From the IMG/VR virus record IMGVR_UViG_3300023714_000001: DNA of 64,000 bases. One strand, 5' to 3'. This document shows positions 7,365 through 64,000 of the stretch, in pieces. Source of the stretch: a virus (lineage: Duplodnaviria > Caudoviricetes). The first letter of the stretch is position 1. Each line of letters begins with the position of its first letter. A model generated the notes under the pieces. That model did not search any database. It saw only the letters and a program-made list of their open reading frames with translations, and was not told the origin of the DNA. The translations under genes and the position numbers were made by a program.

Positions 7365-7451
7365 TGGAGCCCCCGGTCAGATTCGAACTGACGTGTCCTT
7401 TTCGGAACCGGTTTACAAAACCGGTGCAATCGGCCGCTATGCGACAGGGGC
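7365..7451 (-). tRNA. tRNA-Thr(UGU) with a long variable arm
   Basis: GCCCCTG acceptor, anticodon arm CCGGT-TTTGTAA-ACCGG, variable arm TCC-GAAAA-GGA, encoded CCA. Confidence 0.8.
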
Positions 7452-7457
7452 ATAATA

Positions 7458-7533
7458 TGGAGCGGAAAACGAGACTCGAACTCGCGACATTCTGCTTGGA
7501 AGGCAGAAGCTCTACCAACTGAGCTATTTCCGC
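7458..7533 (-). tRNA. tRNA-Gly(UCC)
   Basis: Canonical 76-nt cloverleaf, loop CTTCCAA, GCG acceptor, U73, CCA. Confidence 0.95.
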
Positions 7534-7535
7534 AT

Positions 7536-7611
7536 TGGCTCCCCGAGCAGGACTCGAACCTGCGACATATGGATTAACAGTCCACCGTTCTACCGGCTGA
7601 ACTATCGGGGA
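7536..7611 (-). tRNA. tRNA-Asn(GUU)
   Basis: Canonical cloverleaf, loop CTGTTAA, G73, CCA. Confidence 0.95.
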
Positions 7612-7997
7612 AGAGTGTAGGCAGTTATGTCTTACCCAGGACCTATCCTATTTCCCTCCGGTAACTGACGGATTTTTGGTAACGGAGTGGCCGGATAGTG
7701 GCCGTTGCTTTTGTCGCCGACTGTCTGGGTCTAACAACAATATATCTAATCCCTTTACAGGGGATTATTCAGAGTTACTGCATTTGGTACAGAAAGGAGA
7801 AAAGATGATACCACGCTGCAGTGGGCGTTATCGTATATGTTTGGCCACTAACCAGACGTTAACCTGGTATTGGGCATAAGCGGGCGGCCGTCAATTTTAA
7901 TGTCCCTCGACCGCGAAGGACACCGCTTTCGCGGCACTACATGTAGTGTTTTGCCCGGACCGGTTGATCAGACCTGTTACCAGACAAATATTAGCTA

Positions 7998-8071
7998 AGC
8001 CAGTATCAGGACTCGAACCTGAGTCGCCGAGGTTACGTTTCGGTGCTCTATCCCCATTGAGCTATACCGGC
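7998..8071 (-). tRNA. degenerate tRNA (Thr-like body, aberrant anticodon loop)
   Basis: Acceptor, D and T arms intact; anticodon arm CCGA-AACGTAACC-TCGG lacks U33; no CCA. Confidence 0.6.
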
Positions 8072-8107
8072 ATAAATTGTAACCGCGCCGCTTGGGCGCA
8101 TTTTTAG

Positions 8108-8722
8108 TTGTGTTATTAACAAACACAAAACTACGGCAAAACATCAGGTTTCCCTGTACACAACTTGATGCTCTGCATTTATTCAGCCACGGAGAAGACA
8201 AGTCTGAGCAACGCGCCCGTCGACACGCGCTTCTTGCCTCTTTCTAGCTTCGAGAGGATTAAGACCTCCAACTTTCACCCGTCATTCAGAATTATAGATT
8301 GCTATAAAGCTACATACTTGATCTGTATCATTGCCTTGGGCTACTTATACGGCGACTGACAGTTATAGTCTCTTTTGAAGACATCACGGCAAAGTTCCAT
8401 CTTGATAAATACCTCGTGTACCTAAAGTTTATCACGCTTTAGTCTTTACTGGCGGCAGCGGAGCACACCACTTGTACTCATGCACTTATGAAACCCTGTC
8501 AGTTCCTGCTTTAACGCTCGGCATTGCATGCACATGACCTCAAGATACATGCGCTTACACTTTACACATCACCCTGTTCTTATTGCTAAGAAAGGACGTA
8601 CTCGCTGCAGGCATATCTACTGCAGTTTGTTAGTATCGATTACGGGGCCATTCTCGGACGCATGATATTGCGTTTTATAACCGAGGTATGCTTTGCCATA
8701 GTTTTCTGTTTGTTAATATTAA
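8108..8722 (-). ncRNA. large structured RNA, probably ROOL family
   Basis: About 600 nt non-coding between tRNAs, closed by a ~33-bp terminal helix (8112-8145 with 8688-8720); internal segments TCTGAATGACGGGTGAAAGTTGG and GCTCAGAC..GTGGCTGAATA match my recollection of ROOL; no covariance search run. Confidence 0.65.
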
Positions 8723-8724
8723 AT

Positions 8725-8800
8725 TGGCTCCCCAGGCAGGACTCGAACCTGCGACAAAACGGTTAACAGCCGTTTGCTCTACCAGCTGAGCTACTGGGGA
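8725..8800 (-). tRNA. tRNA-Asn(GUU), second copy
   Basis: Canonical cloverleaf, loop CTGTTAA, CCA. Confidence 0.95.
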
Positions 8801-19920: not shown

Positions 19921-21849
19921 TTATTTCAGCATGCTCTCCAGTTCTTCGGGGCTGATGAGCTTCGTTCCAAGTTCACGAGCCTTCTTGGCCTTAGTACTTT
20001 GGCTGTTAACATCAGAGATAACCAAGTAATCAGTTTTACTATTGACAGAGGAACCTTCTTTGCCGCTCGCTGCTTCGATTTTCTCGACGTAGTAGCTGCG
20101 CGGATGCTCCATCTTGCCGGTCAGCACGAATACTTTGCCAACAAATTCACCTGCAGGAGTTTCCTGCTTTTGATATGGTGCGATAGTAACATACTCCTTC
20201 AGAGCAAAGTATGCCTCAGCAAAATCTTCACTTACCAGAGTCTCTGACACTTTCGGTCCGATTCCCTTAATTGTCGTGAAATAATCTGGCTTGGTATCTC
20301 TGCATCGTATGGCCATAGAGATGAGGAAATCCATATCGCCTTTGTACTCATCTGCCAGTTTCTTGCCAACATCATTGCCAATGCCGGGAATACACATCGC
20401 TTTAATGAAGCGCGGTAATTCCACATTTTCACGAGCATTCTGGATAGCATCACAAAGCTTTTGAGCTGATTTTTCGGCAAAGCCTGGTAAATCTTTAACA
20501 GCCCAGATATCCATAGCAAAAATGATATTCTGCTTATACTTTCTGGCAACATCTGGCCATTTTTCTACAATCTTACGGGCGGTCTGAATAGACAAGCCAG
20601 GGATGTCTAGCACATCTTTTTGACCGAGAAATGCGATATTTTGAGCAATACGTTCAGTACAGTCAGGATTCGTGCAGAACTGCTGGCCGTTGACTTCTTC
20701 TAAAGGTTCACCACAAGACGGACATACATCAAGCGCAATGTCCTTATCGCCCGGTTCCAACACCTTACACACGAAAGGTATTATTTGGTTCCTCTTTTCT
20801 ACGAGCACGCGAGAATTAAGTTTGAGCCCGATTTCCTTAATCCAAGCGCTATTGTGCAGGGACACACGAGTTACAGTTGTACCGTCAATTTCAACTGGAT
20901 CTATGATTGCTACAGGGGTGGCTTTATTGCGGCCCATCTGCCAGATAACGTCTCGTACAATAGTTTCTTTTTGCTCCTGGAGGCTCTTCCAGGCCACGGC
21001 ATTTTTGGGATGATGCCCGGTATAGCCAAACTTGGTTAGACTATCCTTCTGGCAACTCTTAACGACAATGCCATCAATTGGATAAGTTCCAAGGCTAACG
21101 ATATCGTTGTAGACCTGCTCAATACCCTCGATAGTTTCTTCGATGGTATCATATGCAAATGAGTCTGTAACCTTAAAGAGTGTACTGTCTTCTATGTAAT
21201 GGCGAACCTGTTCCGGCGTCATATCTTGGCCGGGCAGGTCATATACTATATAACTGAGTAAGTCCAGATATGGACTACGGTCTTTGCGACGAAGCAAGCC
21301 GGCTGCAGCATTACGCATATTTTTCATTGGCTCTTCGCCATCAGCTTCTAAAGCCACATTCAGGCGCTCGAAATTTGCTGGCGTGATAAATACTTCGCCC
21401 CGGATAGGATACAGTGGCACACCGACCTTTGCACGTAAAAGTTCATAAGCGGTGATGAAGTTTGGTAGAATCTCACCTATCTCGCCACCCAGACCACGAG
21501 TAACGTATTTATATGAACGGTCAGACTGAGGATATGCAACCACAGTCAAACCATCATACTTTGGCTGAATTTCTACCGGCCAAAGTTTTTTAATCTGTGC
21601 CTTCAAGTCGTCTTCACTGTCTACACCCTTGGTCCATTTACCCAAAGAAGTGACCGGTGTAGGGTGCCGGAACTTTTCAAAGCCATCGGAAGCACTGCCG
21701 GGAACGTAATTTAAATCCTCTGCGCCGTACTGGTCAATATAGCTGCGGCGCAATTGGTCATACTCTGCATCAGACATGGACGGATTGTCCAAGTCATAGT
21801 ATTCGTGGTCAGCCTGTTTAATGGCTGCCAAATGTTCTTTTCTAGTCAT
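19921..21849 (-). CDS. ligA: NAD-dependent DNA ligase
   Basis: KYDG adenylation motif, RGEV, RNAAAG, IDGIVVK, Zn finger, HhH repeats, C-terminal BRCT; start placed at MTRKE. Confidence 0.95.
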   Translation of the reverse strand: MTRKEHLAAIKQADHEYYDLDNPSMSDAEYDQLRRSYIDQYGAEDLNYVPGSASDGFEKFRHPTPVTSLGKWTKGVDSEDDLKAQIKKLWPVEIQPKYDGLTVVAYPQSDRSYKYVTRGLGGEIGEILPNFITAYELLRAKVGVPLYPIRGEVFITPANFERLNVALEADGEEPMKNMRNAAAGLLRRKDRSPYLDLLSYIVYDLPGQDMTPEQVRHYIEDSTLFKVTDSFAYDTIEETIEGIEQVYNDIVSLGTYPIDGIVVKSCQKDSLTKFGYTGHHPKNAVAWKSLQEQKETIVRDVIWQMGRNKATPVAIIDPVEIDGTTVTRVSLHNSAWIKEIGLKLNSRVLVEKRNQIIPFVCKVLEPGDKDIALDVCPSCGEPLEEVNGQQFCTNPDCTERIAQNIAFLGQKDVLDIPGLSIQTARKIVEKWPDVARKYKQNIIFAMDIWAVKDLPGFAEKSAQKLCDAIQNARENVELPRFIKAMCIPGIGNDVGKKLADEYKGDMDFLISMAIRCRDTKPDYFTTIKGIGPKVSETLVSEDFAEAYFALKEYVTIAPYQKQETPAGEFVGKVFVLTGKMEHPRSYYVEKIEAASGKEGSSVNSKTDYLVISDVNSQSTKAKKARELGTKLISPEELESMLK

Positions 21850-22252
21850 ATTTCTATCCTCATCCATTGATAACGATATCCCAGCCGTCGCCATATTCGG
21901 ATTTATGAAGCTCAATTATACAGAATTCTGGGTCATAGTTTTCAGTGTCTTCAAGATCTTGCTGGGCATGCCACCATACTTCATCATCATCAAGCGGCCC
22001 GTCGCCATCTCCGCCGCTCAAGAGGTTTGCAAATCCCAAGACAGGCTTACCATTGTAGCCTTTTTCAATCCAATCAAAAGCTGTATCAGGGTCAAATCTA
22101 TGGCGAATTATGCCGTCATCGCAGCTAAGTAATGCTTCTATGCCGTCAAAACCCACGGATTCTCCCAATTCATTCATCTTTTTCTGAAAATCTTTTAATG
22201 CTGACATGTCAACACTCCTTTTAAAAAATTATGATCAGATGTTCTTCTCTGG

Positions 22253-39582: not shown

Positions 39583-41595
39583 TTACGCGGCGAATTTTTT
39601 AACCATACCGTTCTTGTTGGCAATGATGTGTCTCCTCCTGCCGGGGAACTGTATGTACTCAAATCTCCAGTCTCCTTTTGCCTTATGGTTATAAGCTCTT
39701 TTATAAGTCTCTACCTTTAGTATCTTATGGATATGACATACTATATAGTTATTTAACTTAATCTGAGCTTTAACTGTTAAGAAGATACATGGACGAATAT
39801 CGCCGCGGACGGATACAGTCGGTTTGACTATGATATAGTCATCTTTGTATCCTGGGATAACGGTAAGCATTATGCCGCAGCCATATTTTAAGATGTCTGC
39901 TACCAGTGAATAATTTGGCTTACCTGTTTTGATGGTATAGAAACCATGTTTCTCTGCAGCCGCTTTCAGGGTTATACAGCCAGTGATATCCGGTTCACTG
40001 TTATTTGCAGGCAGATTATTATCCGTGGCAGTCAAGGCCGGCGTAGTATTTGCGTCTTTGATGGCTGTAGTAATATTGCGCCCGAGCTGGTTAATCATCT
40101 TACTGATGAGGTTTGTATTCTGGGCAGACTGTTCTACAGCTGTGCTGATTCTTGATACGAGCTCACCATTCTTATCTATGCGCTCAGTCATCATTTGTAC
40201 GAGCTGAGCCATAAGCTGCGTATTTTGTGCAGCAATCTGTGAGTTTTGCATAACCAGATGACCAAACTGCTTCATTGCCTCAGAGTTTTGTACAATGACC
40301 TGCTGTATGTCTGCCGCAACTTGCGGGGACATATACGCTCCGGTTTTGCGAATCTGTTTTAAGATTGCCTTAACCTGCTTCTTGAATTGCTTGGCGATTG
40401 GTTTGCGGGACTGCATTAAGACTTCATACAGACCGTCCTCGGTGAGGAACCATGACTCTTGCACTCCACCAGGGGTCGGAACAATCTTCCGAACCTTTTC
40501 TTCCTCCTCAACCGTATTCAACATTTTGTGTACGGAAGATCTGTCGTACTTAATCATCTCAGCCACGTCCTTGGCCAGGAACAATGGTTCTTCTGCCGTG
40601 CCATACACGGTAAAGTTTCTACCAAGCACTTCCTGCTCGGTTACAATCTGTAATTCTGCGCTCATAGGTTTAGCGCTCTCTCCCTCTGCCTCTCCTTCAG
40701 TTTTCTCTTGTGGAGTGATATTCTTTTCGGGCGGCAGCTCGTCCAGCCATTCCATATCGTCATTGCTGCCAACCACCGCACAACCGAACCAGTCGGGGAG
40801 CTTTTCTTGAACCTGTACTTTTGTATCCGGGATGACAATAGGTTTAGGAGACTCTCCCACTGCGGTGGAGTTCATGTCGTCAATCATCTTGTTGAGGCTT
40901 TCTCTAATATCCTTATCCATGCGCTCGCGATAAGTATCAGAATTAATAATCTTCTGAACGGCGTCCAGAGTCACAAGCCACTGCTTGCGTATCTTACTCT
41001 TGTTACCAAATGTCTCTATGATATTGACTTTTATCTTTTCATCGGCGCCGAGGTTTTTGGCCAGTCTGCTGCCGTCATATCCTCCCCACGAACGTTTTAC
41101 AAAATTTAGCCATGCGCATAAATCTGTGGCTTTGACCAGCAAATTTTGCATACCTGCGTCGTAGAGATGATAATTCTGTCCGCCGATTTGAAAATCTGTC
41201 AAAATTTTGACCCTTTCGCCGTGGGCGGTAAAAATTTGCTCCGGTTCTGCAGCGGGTAAATTCTGTGCCGGAATTTTGTCTTTGGATTTGCCTTTGCTAT
41301 TTTTACTCAACATCTTACACACCTCTGTCTTAATGTTGTCACGCTCTTTATCAAGAGACGCGTACGTCAGTATGGCCAGAAAACCTTTTTCTTCCATAAG
41401 GTAATGGCCTTCGGCTTTTTGGAATAATGCTCTTTCGTAAGGATCAAACTTACACAGAGCCTCAATAAACTCAAAGAGTTCTGCATGCTTGATTTTATAC
41501 AGCCTAGCTATCTCTTTGCTGGAGATAAGCTTTTTGTCTGCTACGTGGACGATGTCTATACTATCCATGACATAATCTTCCTTTCTGACTGTCAT
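39583..41595 (-). CDS. multi-domain antirepressor-like protein (Rha-like N-terminus, BRO-N)
   Basis: ISSKEIA; EEPLFLAKDVA..FLTEDGLYEVLMQSRKPIAKQFK; ends KFAA. Confidence 0.8.
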   Translation of the reverse strand: MTVRKEDYVMDSIDIVHVADKKLISSKEIARLYKIKHAELFEFIEALCKFDPYERALFQKAEGHYLMEEKGFLAILTYASLDKERDNIKTEVCKMLSKNSKGKSKDKIPAQNLPAAEPEQIFTAHGERVKILTDFQIGGQNYHLYDAGMQNLLVKATDLCAWLNFVKRSWGGYDGSRLAKNLGADEKIKVNIIETFGNKSKIRKQWLVTLDAVQKIINSDTYRERMDKDIRESLNKMIDDMNSTAVGESPKPIVIPDTKVQVQEKLPDWFGCAVVGSNDDMEWLDELPPEKNITPQEKTEGEAEGESAKPMSAELQIVTEQEVLGRNFTVYGTAEEPLFLAKDVAEMIKYDRSSVHKMLNTVEEEEKVRKIVPTPGGVQESWFLTEDGLYEVLMQSRKPIAKQFKKQVKAILKQIRKTGAYMSPQVAADIQQVIVQNSEAMKQFGHLVMQNSQIAAQNTQLMAQLVQMMTERIDKNGELVSRISTAVEQSAQNTNLISKMINQLGRNITTAIKDANTTPALTATDNNLPANNSEPDITGCITLKAAAEKHGFYTIKTGKPNYSLVADILKYGCGIMLTVIPGYKDDYIIVKPTVSVRGDIRPCIFLTVKAQIKLNNYIVCHIHKILKVETYKRAYNHKAKGDWRFEYIQFPGRRRHIIANKNGMVKKFAA

Positions 41596-52484: not shown

Positions 52485-53756
52485 TTATGCAGCCATATCT
52501 TTCCAGTCGAGCTTTGTACACTCGCCATCTAAGATATGCACCTTGCTTTCCGCCCGCGTTACAGCCGTATAGAGCCAGCGGGCATTGGTAAGCTGTTCGT
52601 TGTACAGCTTGGATGTACCGGTGATATATACTTCCTCCCACTGGCTACCCTGACTCTTATGAGCTGTAATAGCATAGCCATAGGTGCAGATGGTTACAGT
52701 CGGGGAAAGCATCGGGCGCCCACACAAATCCACAAAATCTCTTTTATAGCCATCACGCCAATAGCGAAGGCCGGCGAGATTCTGTGGTGCGATGGAAGCG
52801 CCATTATAGTTAGGTACAAGAATCAAGTGGTGCACCTCACCATCTTCTTTGTACCGATAAAACTCTGCCACAATAGGCAGTGCTTTCTCCCGATTGGGCA
52901 CACGGATAAACAGCTTATCCTTACCCAGGAGCTCAATATTTTCAGGCACCTTCATGGTTTCTCCGTTACGCAGAAAAGCGCCATTGGATATGCCCATGAT
53001 TGGTTCACCTGTCTGCAGAGTCTTTCCGTCAAAGCCGAGTGCTTTACGGACACCCTGGTTGAAGCGAATGCGCGCCTCATTCTTCCAGGTAACCATGGTG
53101 ATATCCTTACCTGCTTTTAGTTTGGCGAGGTAATCATTCCACAGTACCGGCTTACTCTCAACCGATACGTCACCATGGGTAGAGGTTGGGGAGAATGCCG
53201 TCTTTTTCTGGCGCAAAGCTGTTGCCCAATCCAGGATAGCGCTGCCATCACCCTGACGCATTACCTGTGTCAACACAGACTTATATTCATTGTCGAACAC
53301 TGTACGACTATACTTGCCGACAGGTGGGAGCTGGAACGGGTCTCCCATATAAAAGATCTTGCTTTCCTTCTTGGTGGCAAACTCCTCAAGGTCGTCCAAT
53401 AGTTTGTCAGACAACATGGATGCCTCGTCGCAAATGATGAGCAGCCGCTTATCATCGTCATCTTTAGTGGCGGCCTTCTTAATGAAGTTACCGTAACGGT
53501 CAACGGTGTACAGGAGCTTATGTACGGTCATAGCTCCTTTGTTTCCTTTGCGGCGCAACACTTCTGCCGCCTTGTTTGTTGGCGCGATAAACACCACGCG
53601 GTACTTATCTTTCTTGGCAATAAGTGCAATCTCACCTGCCAACGTAGTCTTACCTGTACCAGCATAACCCATAAGTGTCCATGCCAGTACATCGCCTTTA
53701 ATAAGCTGGGCTTCGATATTCGTTAACGCTTCTTTCTGCTGTTTATTCCATTCCAT
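52485..53756 (-). CDS. Dda/RecD-like SF1B helicase
   Basis: GYAGTGKT, APTNKAA, DEASM, GDPFQLPPV, YAITAHKSQGS, YTAVTRA; ends DMAA. Confidence 0.92.
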   Translation of the reverse strand: MEWNKQQKEALTNIEAQLIKGDVLAWTLMGYAGTGKTTLAGEIALIAKKDKYRVVFIAPTNKAAEVLRRKGNKGAMTVHKLLYTVDRYGNFIKKAATKDDDDKRLLIICDEASMLSDKLLDDLEEFATKKESKIFYMGDPFQLPPVGKYSRTVFDNEYKSVLTQVMRQGDGSAILDWATALRQKKTAFSPTSTHGDVSVESKPVLWNDYLAKLKAGKDITMVTWKNEARIRFNQGVRKALGFDGKTLQTGEPIMGISNGAFLRNGETMKVPENIELLGKDKLFIRVPNREKALPIVAEFYRYKEDGEVHHLILVPNYNGASIAPQNLAGLRYWRDGYKRDFVDLCGRPMLSPTVTICTYGYAITAHKSQGSQWEEVYITGTSKLYNEQLTNARWLYTAVTRAESKVHILDGECTKLDWKDMAA

Positions 53757-54049: not shown

Positions 54050-55918
54050 TTACTTTTCCGCATCGACAACTACAACAATGCCATCATAGCCTTCAAGATG
54101 CTCAGCAACCGGCTTAACACCAGTAGCTTCTTTTACCATCTTGTCATAACCCTTCTCGAGTTTGATACGGAGTTCATTGGTGAGCCATTCCGGTACATCG
54201 CTGGTATAAATGGTCATCAGCTTCTCACTATTAAGCGTCATCTGCATATAGTCCGTGGTTACAACTTTCGTCGTAGCCTTAACTGTATGCGGGCGGAGCT
54301 GAATCTGCATACCAACGACGTCTTTTGTGGACACTTTAGCTGCGCGGGCAGCACAAGTATCGAGCATCGTGCCTTCGCCATCCATCTGGTCATCCTTGTC
54401 AAACAGGATGCAGAAAGACTTGAGCGTAAAGCCCTGGTCAGCACGCATACCCATACCGCAAGTATGAGAAGACAGGCGGGTGGCTGCATCAACAAGCATC
54501 GTACCCGTTACCTTCTCGCCCTCACGGATGGCAAATTCACCATGAGTGGCACTATAGAAGATTTTATTGAATTTCTCAATATTCTCTTCCGTGGATGCAT
54601 CGAAGAACATCATTGTGTCCTGACGCTTCTGAGAGGTAGAATAGATATTGCATCTATCTGCATCAAGCGTCATAATTATATCTTCCTGCTTAACCCACTC
54701 TTTCTTGATGGCCACAACTTCATGCTCCTGCATGCGGTATGCCGGATCGTATCCGCTTAAGAGAGCGTAGCAATTACGCAGTTCAACGAGCACAGATACG
54801 CCATCACCATAAACAGGGACATATTCATCCTTGTCCATATCGTGGGTAACACCAATATTCTTGGTGATGTAAATCTTGCCTCCTTCCTCTAATCCATCAA
54901 TCTTTCCAAGAAGGTAACGCAAGCAACGAGCTGCCTTCTCTTGGATTTTCTTGCCGGACGTCTCATCTGCCCGAACAAGATCAGAAAAGTCAACCGTAGC
55001 TACTTTATCCGTAGCAAGACGTTCACCAGAGAACTGGTTACGGCCAATAGAGTTACCAAGAACAACACCTTTCTTGGCATACGGAGCCGTGAATGCAGTC
55101 ACTGGAGCCGCCGTAATATCGACCACGCACTGGCAGCCAATATTATTGTTGGCCTGTACAAAAGTCAGGCTCTGCATCTGTACAGTAGCCATGCCTTTAT
55201 CAGCCTTCTTCATAAGGGTTCTACGGACTTTATTGTCCAGCTTGTGGCTGCCATGTTTCAGGATAGAGCCAAGCTGAGTGCGAAGACTCGGCTTTTCAGC
55301 AGCCTGAAGGATAACAGCACGATAGTTGCCTTCAACTACCTTCTTAGAAATCCCCTTACGGCCGAGAATCTCATCCAGTTCGGACAAATCCTTAATGTCC
55401 GTCTTGTGAGCGACAATCTTGGCAGCGTATACCGCACCAATGCCGTTAAGCTTCATGAGCTCAGAGACAACACCGCAATTAATGTTGATTTCCTTCTGTT
55501 CAGAAGCTGCCGCTACTTTGAGTACAATGCCGAGCTTCTTACGCTCGACAAGGCTCATAATACGGTCACGGGAGATACCGGCTGCCACCATATCGAGCGG
55601 CGTACGGAATTTCTTTGCCTGTTTATCTTTCCAATAACGGCAAAGACGATTCACCTCACGGTGCGTAAACACCGAGCACAGAACCATCGGGCTCTGTTCA
55701 TTGATATTAACCATTGGGCGGCCAGTACGAATGTACCAGTTATGGCTGAGAACCTTCACGGATTCCCAGGAAATACCAATGTTTGCCAGTGCTTTGAACG
55801 TAGTAGCACTTACACCACGTTCACTGCAGAACGCAAAGATTTTCTCAGCGTCCTTATGGCAAATACCTGCCAGTTCCAGTTCAGAAACGGATGCAAACAG
55901 TAAATTTTCTCTAGTCAT
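54050..55918 (-). CDS. HhH (ComEA-like) repeats fused to the first-barrel half of a two-barrel RNA polymerase
   Basis: ININCGVVSELMKLNGIGAVYAAKIV HhH; C-terminal QMDGEG..GMQIQLRPHTVKA resembles the DGxG..QxR..K motifs of YonO/QDE-1 polymerases; start MTREN after GAGGAGG. Confidence 0.6.
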   Translation of the reverse strand: MTRENLLFASVSELELAGICHKDAEKIFAFCSERGVSATTFKALANIGISWESVKVLSHNWYIRTGRPMVNINEQSPMVLCSVFTHREVNRLCRYWKDKQAKKFRTPLDMVAAGISRDRIMSLVERKKLGIVLKVAAASEQKEININCGVVSELMKLNGIGAVYAAKIVAHKTDIKDLSELDEILGRKGISKKVVEGNYRAVILQAAEKPSLRTQLGSILKHGSHKLDNKVRRTLMKKADKGMATVQMQSLTFVQANNNIGCQCVVDITAAPVTAFTAPYAKKGVVLGNSIGRNQFSGERLATDKVATVDFSDLVRADETSGKKIQEKAARCLRYLLGKIDGLEEGGKIYITKNIGVTHDMDKDEYVPVYGDGVSVLVELRNCYALLSGYDPAYRMQEHEVVAIKKEWVKQEDIIMTLDADRCNIYSTSQKRQDTMMFFDASTEENIEKFNKIFYSATHGEFAIREGEKVTGTMLVDAATRLSSHTCGMGMRADQGFTLKSFCILFDKDDQMDGEGTMLDTCAARAAKVSTKDVVGMQIQLRPHTVKATTKVVTTDYMQMTLNSEKLMTIYTSDVPEWLTNELRIKLEKGYDKMVKEATGVKPVAEHLEGYDGIVVVVDAEK

Positions 55919-56012
55919 GATAAAATCCTCCTCGGGCTCGACGGCCCTTTTCTCTAAAAAAACAAAATTTGACAGACTATTTATCGAGCGCCGCCTGTCA
56001 GGGCGCAGAAAA

Positions 56013-59000
56013 TTAAAAGTCGATATCAACATCGATGGTTTCCGTGCCATCAAAGATAAGAGCAGAGGATTCCTTAACGGATTCTTCCGGCAGAGCATCA
56101 TATTCTGCATTCTTCTGTTCCACTTCTGTCAGCACAACAACGGCACGATTGCAATTGCTGTCTGCATAAACAACGGAAACTGCACCGTTCAAACCTTCAT
56201 AGAAAGAGCGAACAGTAGCATCGTAGCTGTACTGATCACGATTCTTACGGACGTATGTATCTACATCCATATCAATCGTCAGAGCCTGGCTACGAACAGC
56301 AGCCTCCTTATTGTAATGCTTGCCACCCTTGCTGCCCTTTACATAAAGGCTGCCAAGAACTTCAGTACCTTCTCTCATGCCAAGGCGGGTATACTTACCG
56401 TCCTTAACATTTGAAAGAAGAATACGATGACCAACTTTAGAAGACATGGCATCAACGATAGCTTTGTTAATAGCAACTTGCTCGTCATTAATAATCCACT
56501 GTTCTTCTGCGGTTTCACCATCCCATTCCGGATTCGGCATCCAAACAGATTTAAGGTCAAGCTCAAATGCTACCTGGGTACGATCCACTTCGGGGATGCT
56601 GATAAAGTCCGTCATTGGGCGGACAATTGCCGGGGAGTCATCACGCATAGCAATCTGATACATGCCATCCAGAACATTTAAAGACACATAAAGGTCTTCA
56701 ATTTTCTTCATTTTGGCTGTATAGACTTCGCCTTCTTTTACGATAATGTTCTGCCCCTCAGTCAGAGACTTCAGAGCTTCTACATTATTGTAACGAGCAT
56801 TAATGAACTCCACGGCTTCATTATTGTCACTCATCTGAATAGCAGCATAAGCCGTCTCCTCTTTGAGAAGCTTGCTCATATTGCTGCCTGCAGAAGTCGT
56901 GATGTCTTCGCCTCCTGCAAGATAACCAACGAGGTCGTCAGGAGAGACCTTGCTGTTATCACGAGCCACCATCCAACGAATGGTATTGGAGATAGCGTCG
57001 AAAGCATCGTCATACTTCTCGTGCAGAGCTTTGCGGATTGCATCACTCTTAGAGTTGCTGACGTCGCCATACTCATCGGCATTTGCGGCAAGCATTGCTT
57101 TGCGGTCTTCACGATAGACTGTATTGATTGCGCCACCCATGCTGATTGCTACCTGCAGGCGGTTTTCAATACGCTGGTCTGCAATGTGCATGATGGCTAC
57201 GTCGTAAGCATTTTCACGACGAGCCTTATACTCTGCAGAATTAACTGCTGCTTTGTAGCGGGCAATTAATTCATTGAGCTTTTCCATGGACTTTTCAATT
57301 GCATACCGGCGATAGCTGGCGAAGAAGTCGTTGAACACAACAACCTTACGATCGTTCTGCCCCTTTCCTTCTGCCGGCCAGAAAAGCTGAATTGGTTCTT
57401 CAGCCATTACACCGCGGAAGCCTTCACGGCTGATTTCATTGCCGTTCATGTCAAGGAGAATAACTTTTTCGTCCTTACGGAGCAGGTCATCTTCCTTGAG
57501 TTCTGTTTTAACATTAGCTTCCGGGTCTTTATGGAATGCTGCCCAGTCGATAACGAAACGCGCACCGAACTTCAGCGGCGTAACCGTCATCGTTGCCTTA
57601 AGAATGGCTACAAAGTCCGTATAAACCTTGTAGAACTTCTTTTCAGCATCTATAGTGCATTCCTGAGTGTGACGAATAAGAACGTCAAAGTCCTTGATGA
57701 TTTCGAGTAGCGTATTCCACTGCTCTTCTGTTGTACCTTCAAAGCGAGTCATATGAACCGCTTTCTCAAATGCATGATAGGCATCAAGAGTTTCGCCGTT
57801 CTCATAGGTCTTTGGAGCCGTGCTTGCGGTTTCGCGGCCGTATTCATCTTCGCCCCAAGTAAGCGGGGTATGATACTTGCCGTCGCCAGCATCAGCTTCC
57901 GTACCTGCTTCCCATACTGTAGAGAAGCAGGAGATATAGAGTGCTTTTACCTCATCACTCCAATCGATAGCACAAAGCCCCTGAATAAGGACACGGCCAG
58001 CGTTAGTCACAGGACCAACCTTCTCATTATGATTCTGGTTGATCATGTGGAAATTGGTGGAGTACATGCCACCGTCAATTTCGTAACGCTCGCCCTTTTC
58101 TTCAGGCTTAGTCGGTACGATATCAACAGCCAGCGGTTTAAAACCATACCCCATAAGGAACCAGGGGATATCCTTCTGGCCTGCACGATGCAGAATTACA
58201 GAAGTCTTATCCCCATCACGGTCCGAACCGGCCAGCACGCTGCCGATAGCTGCCAGGTCAGCAGGCATCTCGATAATACCTTCCTTGATATTGGCATACT
58301 GTTCAGCAGCGCAGATGGCCTCCTCTTCCGTGAGGTAGCCACGCTCAACGAGGTCCATCAGAGCTTCCTCGATTTCCTCGTCATCCATAAAATGAACGAG
58401 TACGGTTTCGCGGGTGCCAACAGACGGATACTTCATGAGCGCACCGTAACGATCTTCTCTGGCGGCATTGATACCGTCAAAGAAGCGAGTAGCACGAGGA
58501 TCGACAACATTCATGACGTTGCCATTGATACCCGTAACGCCAACTTTCAGTGCTTCTTCAACACCGAAACGGCTCTTAATGAGCTCATACACCGGGTCAA
58601 TCGAAATCATGCTTGTGTGGCCGTCAAGATGATAACGGTCGAGCTGAACATGATTGGAGAGCGTACGGGCGATGTCGTTTGTGGCACCCTTAATGAGCTG
58701 CGGCCACATGTTGAGCGCACCGCTGTTCATACCCATTAAGAGCGAAGAAGTATAACCAGCATCAACTTCTTCAAAGCCACGATAACCATCGCGGCAACGG
58801 CCATCGAGGTCAGACACCTCGTCCACCGTATGGTCGATAGCAGTTTTGATGACTTCATCCAGGTCGCTAAGCACCTGTTCTGCATCGGCGCCATTTTTAA
58901 TAGCGTCGTTTGCGCAGCGGAACAACTTCATCCACATCTGTGCGGATGAGTACACGTTCTTATCTTCATCCTCTGCATGAGGAATCATAAGAACATTCAT

Positions 59001-59228
59001 TCCGGTTGGTACAGTGACATCAAAGATGTCTTTCCAGAAATTACGGTCACCCACAATTTCCGGCAGTTCAATACCGTTAGCAATGGCTTTAAAAGCATTG
59101 CCTTTTACGTTAGCTGCTGCATTAACATGTATAGCTTTTTCTGCAGCTTTTGCTTTTTCTTCGGCATTGATTTTCTCAACAATAGCCTTACGATCAACGG
59201 TTACGTTTGCGATAGTCTGAGTCTTCAT
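56013..59228 (-). CDS. two-barrel RNA polymerase catalytic half (YonO/QDE-1-like)
   Basis: LAGSDRDGDK (DxDGD) preceded by LMKYPS (K/RxP); 1071 aa from MKTQ after AGGAGG. Confidence 0.72.
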   Translation of the reverse strand: MKTQTIANVTVDRKAIVEKINAEEKAKAAEKAIHVNAAANVKGNAFKAIANGIELPEIVGDRNFWKDIFDVTVPTGMNVLMIPHAEDEDKNVYSSAQMWMKLFRCANDAIKNGADAEQVLSDLDEVIKTAIDHTVDEVSDLDGRCRDGYRGFEEVDAGYTSSLLMGMNSGALNMWPQLIKGATNDIARTLSNHVQLDRYHLDGHTSMISIDPVYELIKSRFGVEEALKVGVTGINGNVMNVVDPRATRFFDGINAAREDRYGALMKYPSVGTRETVLVHFMDDEEIEEALMDLVERGYLTEEEAICAAEQYANIKEGIIEMPADLAAIGSVLAGSDRDGDKTSVILHRAGQKDIPWFLMGYGFKPLAVDIVPTKPEEKGERYEIDGGMYSTNFHMINQNHNEKVGPVTNAGRVLIQGLCAIDWSDEVKALYISCFSTVWEAGTEADAGDGKYHTPLTWGEDEYGRETASTAPKTYENGETLDAYHAFEKAVHMTRFEGTTEEQWNTLLEIIKDFDVLIRHTQECTIDAEKKFYKVYTDFVAILKATMTVTPLKFGARFVIDWAAFHKDPEANVKTELKEDDLLRKDEKVILLDMNGNEISREGFRGVMAEEPIQLFWPAEGKGQNDRKVVVFNDFFASYRRYAIEKSMEKLNELIARYKAAVNSAEYKARRENAYDVAIMHIADQRIENRLQVAISMGGAINTVYREDRKAMLAANADEYGDVSNSKSDAIRKALHEKYDDAFDAISNTIRWMVARDNSKVSPDDLVGYLAGGEDITTSAGSNMSKLLKEETAYAAIQMSDNNEAVEFINARYNNVEALKSLTEGQNIIVKEGEVYTAKMKKIEDLYVSLNVLDGMYQIAMRDDSPAIVRPMTDFISIPEVDRTQVAFELDLKSVWMPNPEWDGETAEEQWIINDEQVAINKAIVDAMSSKVGHRILLSNVKDGKYTRLGMREGTEVLGSLYVKGSKGGKHYNKEAAVRSQALTIDMDVDTYVRKNRDQYSYDATVRSFYEGLNGAVSVVYADSNCNRAVVVLTEVEQKNAEYDALPEESVKESSALIFDGTETIDVDIDF

Positions 59229-59319
59229 GATATTTTTCCTCCTTTGTGGCTCGACGGCCACTCTGCAAAAAAAACAAAAATTGCCCAGTTTAAGGTCGTG
59301 TGGCAGGACCAAAACAAAA

Positions 59320-59850
59320 TTAAAACGGCAAATCTCCCCATTCCGTGATGGGGTTGAGGTCAAATACTTCGGCCTCTATATTCTCATCTATATCTCTGTG
59401 GGAAACATAGGAGTCTTCCCCCATACCGTAGCAGTTATAAGCGAACTCCTTAACCTTATCTTTGGGATAAGTTTCCAGGAGCTTTACCAGGAGCATTGTG
59501 GAAATAACGTGTTCCTCCACTAAGAGGTCAGCGCCATCAACAAAGTCTGCAGCGCCAATTTCCTCCTGCATACGGCCAAACAGCTTTAGTGCCGCATCAC
59601 CCTCTGCACGCTCGGCTTCCTCCAGAAGCCCAACGGTGTTGTTGAACTCCAGAGTAACATCCTCGTCCGGCTCATCGCCGAACGGGTTGGTGAAGCAGGC
59701 CTTATCCTTGCCTACCACCAAGAACCTGCCCTTTTCATAGGCGCCCTTCCCGCCAAACATAAGTGCTCCATTCGGAAGTACTTCATAATGAGCAAATGCT
59801 TCACCAAGCAGGATAACAACAGCGGCCTTAATAAGATTCAGTTTCTTCAT
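59320..59850 (-). CDS. acidic hypothetical protein ending WGDLPF
   Basis: 176 aa; leader GCTGTCCTATCGGCATATACGGGGAGAAGGAG overlaps the RBS. Confidence 0.7.
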   Translation of the reverse strand: MKKLNLIKAAVVILLGEAFAHYEVLPNGALMFGGKGAYEKGRFLVVGKDKACFTNPFGDEPDEDVTLEFNNTVGLLEEAERAEGDAALKLFGRMQEEIGAADFVDGADLLVEEHVISTMLLVKLLETYPKDKVKEFAYNCYGMGEDSYVSHRDIDENIEAEVFDLNPITEWGDLPF

Positions 59851-63138: not shown

Positions 63139-64000
63139 TTGAAAATCAGAGTAAAACAATTGGCGCATAAATTCGTACAAGCTGGCGCCAAATCTCACCC
63201 CTTCACTCGCCACTATTACCGCGATAACAGCGATAAAAACATTTTGGCGAAGTACAGGGAAAAACATAATAACACGGAAATCTACGAAAATTTGTACACA
63301 ATGACCGTGGAAGATGACGCCAGCAAAGATGCGAAATCCATCTGGCAGGCAAATAAAGAACAGGCCGTTCTTACCGGAGACTTTGTTGTTGACCTAGACC
63401 TGCACGGCGCCGGCGACAAACCGGAAGCCTACGATGCTGTTCGCAATGATACCATTGGCGTTGTAAAACGTTTATGTCAGCTACTTCACATCACTGAAAA
63501 CCAGATGAAGATATACTGGAGCGGCGGCAAGGGATTCCATGTTGTAGTCCCGTATGCAGGATTGCTATCAGCAAAGAATCTAAACAAAGGATATCGCAGA
63601 CTGGCACAATGGCTTAATCGCTACTACAAGACGATTGATCTGACATTGTACGATGAACAGCGAGTCTGTCGCATTCCCAACTCTATCCACGGTAAGACAG
63701 GGATGTATTGCGTTCGTGTATCCTGGGAACAGCTTCAGAGTATGGATCTGATACAAATGATGCAATGGGCCTTTAACCCCCGTCCAGATGAGGACGTCTT
63801 CTTAAACGAAAGTCACGTAAGAAGTGTGTTTGGTTCAAATTTAGAACGGCTCTCAGGCCTTATACTACGCGGGTTGAAGGGTAGTAGGAAAACTAAAAAG
63901 AAACAACCCCGTACAATAACCGTAGAAGAGAGAAGGGGTGTTTTTCAGAGTATTTTCAGATTCAAACAACCTGGTGTGATTTCCGAGTCTGCCGTAAAAA
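63139..64000 (+). CDS. archaeo-eukaryotic primase (AEP/PrimPol), runs off the window
   Basis: TTG start after AGGAGG; FVVDLD (DxD), WSGGKGFHV, IDLTLYD..RVCRIPNS; not in the ORF track because there is no stop in the window. Confidence 0.85.
   Translation, partial: MKIRVKQLAHKFVQAGAKSHPFTRHYYRDNSDKNILAKYREKHNNTEIYENLYTMTVEDDASKDAKSIWQANKEQAVLTGDFVVDLDLHGAGDKPEAYDAVRNDTIGVVKRLCQLLHITENQMKIYWSGGKGFHVVVPYAGLLSAKNLNKGYRRLAQWLNRYYKTIDLTLYDEQRVCRIPNSIHGKTGMYCVRVSWEQLQSMDLIQMMQWAFNPRPDEDVFLNESHVRSVFGSNLERLSGLILRGLKGSRKTKKKQPRTITVEERRGVFQSIFRFKQPGVISESAVK

Follow-up and report, generated by a model that had tools for sequence, protein, structure and literature searches.

Two-barrel polymerases include all cellular RNA polymerases. 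In the Neurospora enzyme QDE-1, barrel 1 (residues 680/690-782/792) contains D709, Q736, R738, K743 and K767, with R671 on an auxiliary helix, and barrel 2 contains D1007, D1009 and D1011 (PMC9508822, PMC1750930). Those phage members of the class that have been characterised, namely YonO (PMC5467207), gp66 of phage phi14:2 and the P23-45 enzymes, are transcriptases. For the step from an ancestral single chain to barrels on separate subunits, only scenarios have been put forward (e.g. PMC1750930). Here we describe two neighbouring genes, A and B, of a large uncultured phage in a 64,000-nt stretch of DNA (the window), which corresponds to bases 3911-67910 of the 211-kb IMG/VR virus record IMGVR_UViG_3300023714_000001 (Duplodnaviria; Caudoviricetes; estimated completeness 90%). 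As judged from their relatives, the two genes carry the parts of a protein that is elsewhere a single chain, in swapped order, and their products probably constitute a two-barrel (double-psi beta-barrel) RNA polymerase of the cellular RNA-dependent RNA polymerase (RdRP)/QDE-1/YonO type that works as a heterodimer. Both open reading frames (ORFs) are present on the minus strand where a preliminary description of this locus had placed them. They are separated by a 94-nt spacer, each has its own ATG and strong Shine-Dalgarno (SD) site, and the two barrels are thus not both contained in one polypeptide.

When 1.84 billion representative proteins were scanned exhaustively by HMMER with gene A as query, 37 matches were returned. 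Apart from the split form itself, the full-length matches are longer single chains of 1197-2164 amino acids, the C-terminal part of which is matched by approximately residues 50-890 of gene A (residues are hereafter given as A or B followed by their numbers). Searched against the same proteins, gene B matches their N-terminal part, always directly ahead of the A-like part, and homology to the fused relatives reaches E-values of 1e-118 for A and 3e-48 for B. All 34 relatives that contain both parts are single chains in which the B-like part is followed by the A-like part, with the junction at approximately B 617-620 and A 50-57, an order shared with the IMG/VR locus L014. In P0011, residues 438-976 correspond to B 74-617 and residues 987-1806 to A 57-890, and a single residue of P0016 (411) corresponds to both B 619 and A 51. 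A single ORF encodes the fused protein on L005 and L014, both of which are phage-like contigs. Because all 34 two-part relatives are single chains with the B-like part first, genes A and B are, on this sequence comparison, a split of a single-chain protein whose parts are encoded in reverse order, an arrangement that the preliminary description had proposed and that is opposite to that of every fused relative. In a quick IQ-TREE phylogeny of the A-like region with Shimodaira-Hasegawa-like approximate likelihood ratio test (SH-aLRT) support, the three split forms constitute one clade (support 100), which is nested in an eight-row clade (support 100) together with the fused P0010-P0014 that bear a helix-hairpin-helix (HhH) domain, inside the wider fused family. 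One derived split event within the fused family is the simplest reading of this topology.

The family is missed by Pfam, PHROGs, GenBank phages and one-per-species prokaryote genomes. Sequence searches of Pfam, PHROGs and the PDB with A, B and the family profile retrieved no polymerase family, tblastn searches of GenBank phages with A, B and the divergent member P0040 gave no match, and a pattern scan of one-per-species prokaryote genomes identified no relatives. A word-based protein search found near-identical split forms only, the split relatives being 81-94% identical, and a pattern scan of IMG/VR added one distant fused relative, L014.

Structural comparisons connect both products to two-barrel polymerases. 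AlphaFold2 (AF2) models built from family alignments had a predicted local distance difference test (pLDDT) score of 78 for the gene A product and 70 for the gene B product. In a Foldseek search, the top rows for gene A were all QDE-1 and RDR2, with weak E-values of approximately 6e-3, and nothing clear was retrieved for gene B. VIA re-alignment matched gene A to maize RDR2 (7w84; Z-score 17.3, 439 residues, root-mean-square deviation (rmsd) 5.5, A 65-799 to RDR2 604-1108), Arabidopsis RDR2 (Z 14), QDE-1 (Z ~13), phi14:2 gp66 (Z 9.9, 366 residues) and, in a long tail of matches, beta'/Rpb1 subunits (Z ~7). With the same tool, gene B was aligned to RDR2 (Z 6-7.3, ~200 residues, B 241-560 to 370-600) and to QDE-1 (Z 4.5-4.8, B 241-561 to 486-755), and its RDR2 match is collinear with and adjacent to the gene A match on the same targets. 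Furthermore, the best matches to gene A in BFVD were phage RdRP-like proteins. The earlier assignment to a QDE-1/RDR/YonO-type two-barrel polymerase is therefore backed by matches from Foldseek, VIA and BFVD.

The putative catalytic residues are distributed over both products. Gene A contains the motif G334-S-D336-R-D338-G-D340, and K66, K266, P268, D336, D338 and D340 are invariant among the approximately 37-40 aligned family members. The barrel that carries the DxDxD loop is present in gene A and was aligned across its extent to RDR2, QDE-1, gp66 and beta' subunits, and the helices A 388-398 and A 404-414, which flank the invariant N401 and G405, resemble by description the two-helix bridge with hinge glycine of RDR2. 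Gene B contains the motifs D513-G-E-G516 and Q538-I-Q540-L-R542-P-H-T-V-K547-A, and R481, D513, G514, Q540, R542 and K547 are invariant in the same alignment. The D-to-Q spacing of 27 and the pattern QxRxxxxK are identical to QDE-1 D709, Q736, R738 and K743 (PMC9508822). Gene B thus carries a second barrel with basic and acidic residues, and both residue sets are in contact in the predicted complex. The motifs reported earlier, KYP and GSDRDGD in the upstream gene and DGEG..QIQLRPHTVKA in the downstream gene, are all present with their key residues invariant in the family, and the placement of the barrel-1 residues in the downstream and of the DxDGD barrel in the upstream gene was borne out.

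Several results weigh against a polymerase assignment. The Pfam RdRP family (PF05183) matched neither A nor B at E <= 1, nor the genome at E <= 10, nor 32 fused relatives at E <= 0.001. The PDB sequence searches were empty, the structural Z-scores of 6-7 for gene B fall in the middling range of the tool, and comparison of the family profile with YonO by hhalign, in which the best alignment covers the DGxG region, was not significant (E 0.25). As no sequence profile ties the family to a named polymerase family, its assignment is based on predicted structure and motif grammar.

Alignment ranges and a predicted complex were used to assess where the chain is cut. In five RDR2 entries, the gene B alignment ends at B 558-560, equivalent to RDR2 595-600, and the gene A alignment starts at A 65, 67, 74, 67 and 81, equivalent to RDR2 604, 609, 615, 608 and 622, with a constant offset. 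These collinear ranges indicate that B 559-622 plus A 1-64 are an insertion relative to RDR2. The last third of barrel 1, including the site of QDE-1 K767, would then be supplied by gene A around the invariant K66. The conserved 'GYD(A/G)(V/I)' strand (B 611-617) and 'GDLNxxKD' (A 59-66) are only approximately 12 residues apart in the fused relatives. The break is located in the loop between them, with which a family-specific insertion within barrel 1 would end.

The complex was predicted for A 40-800 with B 405-622, using alignments built in this analysis and three controls. It scored 0.67 (runs 0.77, 0.67 and 0.60), compared with 0.00 for the best control, a mark that is reached by 58/80 solved complexes and 2/110 mismatched pairs. 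The two halves of a split gene can also attain it because they resemble solved single-chain structures. At least 62% of contacts are common to the runs, with a partner pLDDT of at least 64. The most confident contacts join A 56-61 to B 500-505 and B 516-519, which represent the first hairpin of barrel 1, and the catalytic loop A 336-339, A 53-83 and A 374-397 also touch B. The prediction, in line with what had been anticipated for the pair, supports assembly of A and B into a composite active site.

In the proposed arrangement, the gene B product would supply the DNA-binding HhH modules, a slab-like domain, the auxiliary helix (R481) and the first strands of barrel 1, in which D513, Q540, R542 and K547 would bind the RNA 3' end, the phosphates of the nucleoside triphosphate and metal B. 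The gene A product would dock onto barrel 1 with the strand that bears the invariant K66, and would contribute the neck, barrel 2 including the metal-binding residues D336, D338 and D340, the bridge-helix-like helix pair and the head. The active site would form only on association of the chains. The cut is probably inside barrel 1, as the preliminary description had suggested, and would fall within the family-specific insertion; the RDR2 alignment ranges and the A 56-61 contacts speak for this placement, which is derived from predicted models. Against it stand the inconsistent starting points of gene A in QDE-1 (655-765) and the basis of the placement itself, namely alignment ranges and predicted contacts. 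At somewhat better than even confidence, we propose that a catalytic double-psi beta-barrel is here built in trans, a single-chain enzyme having become two subunits by duplication and complementary deletions, with barrel 1 completed by a strand of the other subunit and the genes reversed.

A rather unlikely alternative is that barrel 1 is complete within gene B, with B 567-571 and B 613-617 among its strands, that the N-terminal strand of A is an extra edge strand and that the cut lies between modules. The six strands between residues 501 and 617 of the gene B model would suit such a barrel, as would the low confidence of A 40-95 when the gene A product is folded alone and the variable QDE-1 starting points. 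However, A 65-81 aligns collinearly with RDR2 604-622 in all five entries, immediately after the end of B at 595-600, and B 563-622 is without a counterpart in RDR2. Furthermore, K66 of A is invariant and located at the site of the barrel-1 residue K767 of QDE-1, and the strongest predicted contacts between the chains are strand-to-strand contacts with the strands of barrel 1.

With respect to function, the split enzyme is reasonably likely to conduct DNA-templated, host-independent transcription of phage genes, by analogy with YonO, phi14:2 gp66 and the P23-45 enzymes and given the genome content; the transcribed genes would probably be middle or late phage genes. This role is favoured because the genome is without beta/beta' domains or a sigma factor, the HhH modules are of a DNA-binding type and the characterised phage members of the class are transcriptases. 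The Rpb1/Rpb2 domains PF00623 and PF00562 had no match in the 211-kb genome at E <= 10, whereas the control genomes were matched in 14 of 14 cases, and no sigma-70 region 2 was detected in the genome. A scan for sigma-70 promoter and terminator consensus sequences yielded background level only.

The same split enzyme might instead copy RNA or single-stranded DNA, like QDE-1 and RDR2, in priming, in the formation of double-stranded RNA or in another replication- or defence-related task, a role that we consider improbable. Three observations count in its favour and against DNA-templated transcription. The nearest structural neighbours are RNA-dependent enzymes, the pair formed by Q540 and R542 is an RdRP-type variant of the barrel-1 lysines that is typical of RdRPs related to RNA interference (PMC9508822), and the genes are surrounded by others of replication type, with a Dda-like helicase immediately downstream and a ligase and primase nearby. 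Contrastingly, YonO (PMC5467207) and phi14:2 gp66 (6vr4) are DNA-dependent transcriptases of the same structural class, and domains of the HhH/ComEA type bind DNA. The phage also has its own DnaG-like primase, which weakens the case for a priming function, and encodes no other recognisable non-virion RNA polymerase or sigma factor.

Decay of a rearranged polymerase gene into an inactive remnant, or an assembly artefact, is a disfavoured and very improbable explanation of the pair. The rearranged order and the non-homologous leader of gene A could stem from a disruptive rearrangement. However, both halves are under purifying selection, with ratios of non-synonymous to synonymous substitution rates (dN/dS) between the window and L002 of 0.10 for gene A, 0.08 for gene B and 0.105 for the gene A leader, the catalytic residues are all intact, and both genes have strong SD sites. 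A 1089-residue protein followed by a 622-residue protein and a helicase is furthermore encoded on at least 12 contigs, drawn from independent assemblies at ENA and JGI, as well as in the three IMG/VR genomes L002-L004, and the layout is also seen in relatives of 81-94% identity. Because of this recurrence, the split layout is not an assembly artefact. It is scarcely credible that programmed frameshifting or protein splicing joins the two ORFs into a single, circularly permuted chain. Ahead of its ATG, the gene B frame of the window stays open over 70 codons (55919-56110) and runs into the end of gene A, but in L002, L018 and L019 this frame is closed by a stop codon 10 codons before the ATG. 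Gene B furthermore has its own SD site and ATG, and the translations have no intein-like termini. A frameshift fusion was rejected, with the unconserved open frame attributed to chance, and an intein was rejected on the termini.

Genes A and B share upstream DNA, the 100 nt ahead of each gene being paralogous to one another. The elements of approximately 95 nt ahead of the two genes align with 71% identity, and their local alignment score of 23 compares with 7.7 +/- 1.3 (maximum 13) for shuffled sequences. Both copies begin at TTTTAA, which contains the stop codon of the preceding ORF, and the 12-mers TTTTGTTTTTTT and GGCCGTCGAGCC, one of which is T-rich, each occur only at these two sites in the 211 kb. 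Pairing of the CGTCGA hairpin is kept through different stems, GTGGC/GCCAC versus GGGC/GCCC, with a G-U pair in L002, in which the upstream element is retained. Predicted folding of the upstream regions is not unusually stable (z -1.4 to +0.4), and the claim therefore concerns shared sequence and not a proven structure. The element may be a promoter or a control site in the 5' untranslated region (UTR) that couples the expression of both halves.

In addition, the leader of gene A (A 1-55) has no counterpart in the fused relatives. Residues A 27-51 weakly resemble B 22-46 (40% identity; shuffle p ~0.001-0.002 in six pairings), and DNA similarity between the first 171 coding nucleotides of A and B was not significant, with 74 of 1000 shuffles scoring as high. 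The leader probably survives from the ancestral N-terminus. The shared upstream element and the likeness of the leader point to, and fit, an origin by duplication plus deletions. The ancestral gene, or its 5' end including the promoter, UTR and first ~50 codons, would have been duplicated, followed by complementary deletions in which the first copy lost the N-half and the second the C-half, the order and number of steps being inferred. Each half would have been left with the same upstream control element, and the halves are therefore probably co-regulated. In the favoured reading, the split layout arose a single time, inside a family of single-chain phage enzymes.

The ComEA-like HhH repeats reported for the downstream gene were confirmed by Pfam HHH_3 (B 141-196, E 7e-9) and by structure comparison, in which 61 residues were matched to ComEA 8dss (Z 8.2, rmsd 1.7 A). 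Feature and shape searches of the ESM Atlas with gene B retrieved HhH proteins only. The proposal that the N-half had gained these repeats with the split was, however, not upheld. HHH_3 was identified in the fused P0010, P0011 and P0014 and in 5 of the 32 further fused members that were scanned, and overall in at least seven fused relatives, including all five nearest ones tested. Since HHH_3 is also present in fused relatives, the HhH domain, as far as this distribution shows, predates the split and marks a subclade, and is no gain of the split form. One fused member encodes a MYG1-type exonuclease domain (E 5e-31) instead of HHH_3. Together with the presence of HHH_3 in a subset of the family, this indicates that N-terminal accessories vary among its members. 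YonO-like enzymes with added DNA-binding domains are already known (bioRxiv 10.1101/842583).

The coordinates of both genes, their predicted parts and the neighbouring genes are listed in Table 1.

Table 1. Genes A and B, the putative domains and motifs of their products, their upstream elements and selected neighbouring genes (window coordinates).
Feature	Position	Strand	Basis or remarks
Gene A	59228-56013	minus	1071 aa; ORF and translation; ATG preceded by GGAGG
Gene A product (C-half subunit)	56013..59228	minus	predicted parts: leader, last part of barrel 1, neck helices, barrel 2 with DxDxD, bridge-helix-like pair, head, beta-rich C-terminus
Gene A leader, residues 1-55	59064..59228	minus	matches of fused homologues begin at A ~50-57; pLDDT <55; dN/dS 0.105
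Gene A residues 56-95	58944..59063	minus	strand with invariant K66 and nearly invariant N78; predicted to complete or complement barrel 1 in trans
K266-Y-P268 motif, barrel 2	58425..58433	minus	K266 and P268 invariant; YonO equivalent R492-S-P
Putative catalytic metal-binding loop D336-R-D338-G-D340	58209..58223	minus	invariant in family; equivalent to QDE-1 D1007/D1009/D1011 (PMC9508822)
Upstream element of gene A	59229..59325	minus	TTTTAA, hairpin, TTTTGTTTTTTT, GGCCGTCGAGCC in small hairpin with CGTCGA loop, SD
Gene B	55918-54050	minus	622 aa; ORF and translation; ATG preceded by GGAGG
Gene B product (N-half subunit)	54050..55918	minus	predicted parts: HhH modules, slab-like domain, auxiliary helix, first barrel-1 strands, family-specific insertion
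ComEA-like (HhH)2 DNA-binding domain, residues 141-204	55307..55498	minus	Pfam HHH_3 and ComEA structural match
Slab-like domain, residues 241-470, with disordered insert 341-404	54509..55198	minus	aligned to RDR2 slab region from residue 370 on; pLDDT profile
Auxiliary helix with R481, then barrel-1 strands with D513-G514, Q540, R542, K547 (residues 481-553)	54260..54478	minus	columns invariant
Family-specific insertion, residues 554-622, ending at the split point	54053..54259	minus	without counterpart in RDR2 alignments; conserved in fused relatives to ~617-620
Upstream element of gene B	55919..56012	minus	paralogous copy of the element of gene A
Dda-like superfamily 1 (SF1) helicase	52485-53756	minus	directly downstream of gene B
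DnaG-type zinc-ribbon primase	63301-64000	plus	extends to genome position 69043; start of plus-strand block, just past the divergent junction
NAD-dependent DNA ligase with HhH and BRCT domains	19921-21915	minus	same block as genes A and B
670-aa Bro-N domain protein	39583-41595	minus	same block as genes A and B

Within the window, small minus-strand genes are arranged in long runs, and elsewhere in the genome giant plus-strand ORFs of 2231, 3080 and 2904 amino acids were identified. No second copy of either half is present in the genome. The window also encodes a phage transfer-messenger RNA (tag DEAEYRLAA) and five tRNA genes (Thr, Gly, two Asn and Tyr) at 1830-2226 and 7365-8800 on the minus strand. 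The 3080-residue ORF, which is located outside the window within the giant-gene block (G000:C1:114004-123246, plus strand; L007:105-9347), contains AGQNGDKDGD at residue 2480 and matched, in an Atlas feature search (0.85), a viral cluster with the Pfam RdRP family (PF05183). It has no PHROG match, and hhalign revealed no profile similarity to the split-polymerase family. This ORF may be a second, virion-type two-barrel polymerase, which we regard only as a lead. Furthermore, the motif RGTAATRTNYG occurs 13 times on the plus strand between 81 and 192 kb of the genome, compared with ~4 times in shuffled sequences, with several copies located 30-300 nt ahead of late-gene starts. This motif is a candidate promoter of the phage, and one of the phage polymerases may act on it.

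No QDE-1/YonO-type enzyme that is split in two, order-swapped or divided within a barrel was found in the literature, in agreement with the preliminary description; the searched literature is incomplete, and absence is therefore not proven. As fused and split forms occur as close relatives and the rearrangement has left traces that persist, the transition from a fused to a split enzyme can be studied within one family. If a barrel is indeed built in trans, the pair would offer a snapshot of single-chain polymerases becoming multisubunit, with the upstream element and the leader remnant as readable traces. The split pair also represents a natural two-piece system for testing the contribution of each barrel and, if it functions as a host-independent transcriptase, it would add to the known ways in which large phages run their own gene expression.

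The best structural matches of the pair are RDR2 from Arabidopsis and maize and Neurospora QDE-1 (PF05183), with which it shares the predicted domain order of slab, auxiliary helix, barrel 1, neck and barrel 2, followed by a putative bridge helix and the head, the D..27..QxRxxxxK pattern of gene B and the loop GSDxDGD. In contrast to these single eukaryotic chains, the phage enzyme is encoded as two chains by swapped genes, has no Pfam RdRP match and adds the HhH modules and an insertion of approximately 60 residues in barrel 1. YonO of the Bacillus prophage SPbeta is likewise a phage RdRP-like two-barrel enzyme with the same motif order (DGCG249, R266xxxxK271, RSP492 and DNDGDK535) and the likely functional precedent as a host-independent transcriptase (PMC5467207). 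Unlike the pair, it is a single chain of 839 amino acids without HhH domain, its D-to-R spacing is 17 instead of 29, and its profile similarity stays at the non-significant level given above. The gp66 protein of the crAss-like phage phi14:2 (PDB 6VR4), a phage two-barrel RNA polymerase related to QDE-1, matches gene A structurally, but is a virion protein of 2180 amino acids encoded in the structural block, whereas the proteins described here are smaller (1071 and 622 amino acids) and encoded in a minus-strand block of early/replication genes. The fused metagenomic relatives (P0010-P0043) are homologous to both halves and share the same invariant residues, the nearest ones also HHH_3, and differ in being single chains with the N-half followed by the C-half and without the leader of gene A. 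Finally, the RNA polymerases of the jumbo phages phiKZ and AR9 and the split subunits of archaea and cyanobacteria also distribute their core over several polypeptides, the genes of which are not always collinear (PMC7824862 and PMC7598289). These enzymes are of the beta/beta' type, with each barrel located within one subunit according to PMC7824862, whereas the phage pair is without Rpb1/Rpb2 domains and is probably cut through barrel 1.

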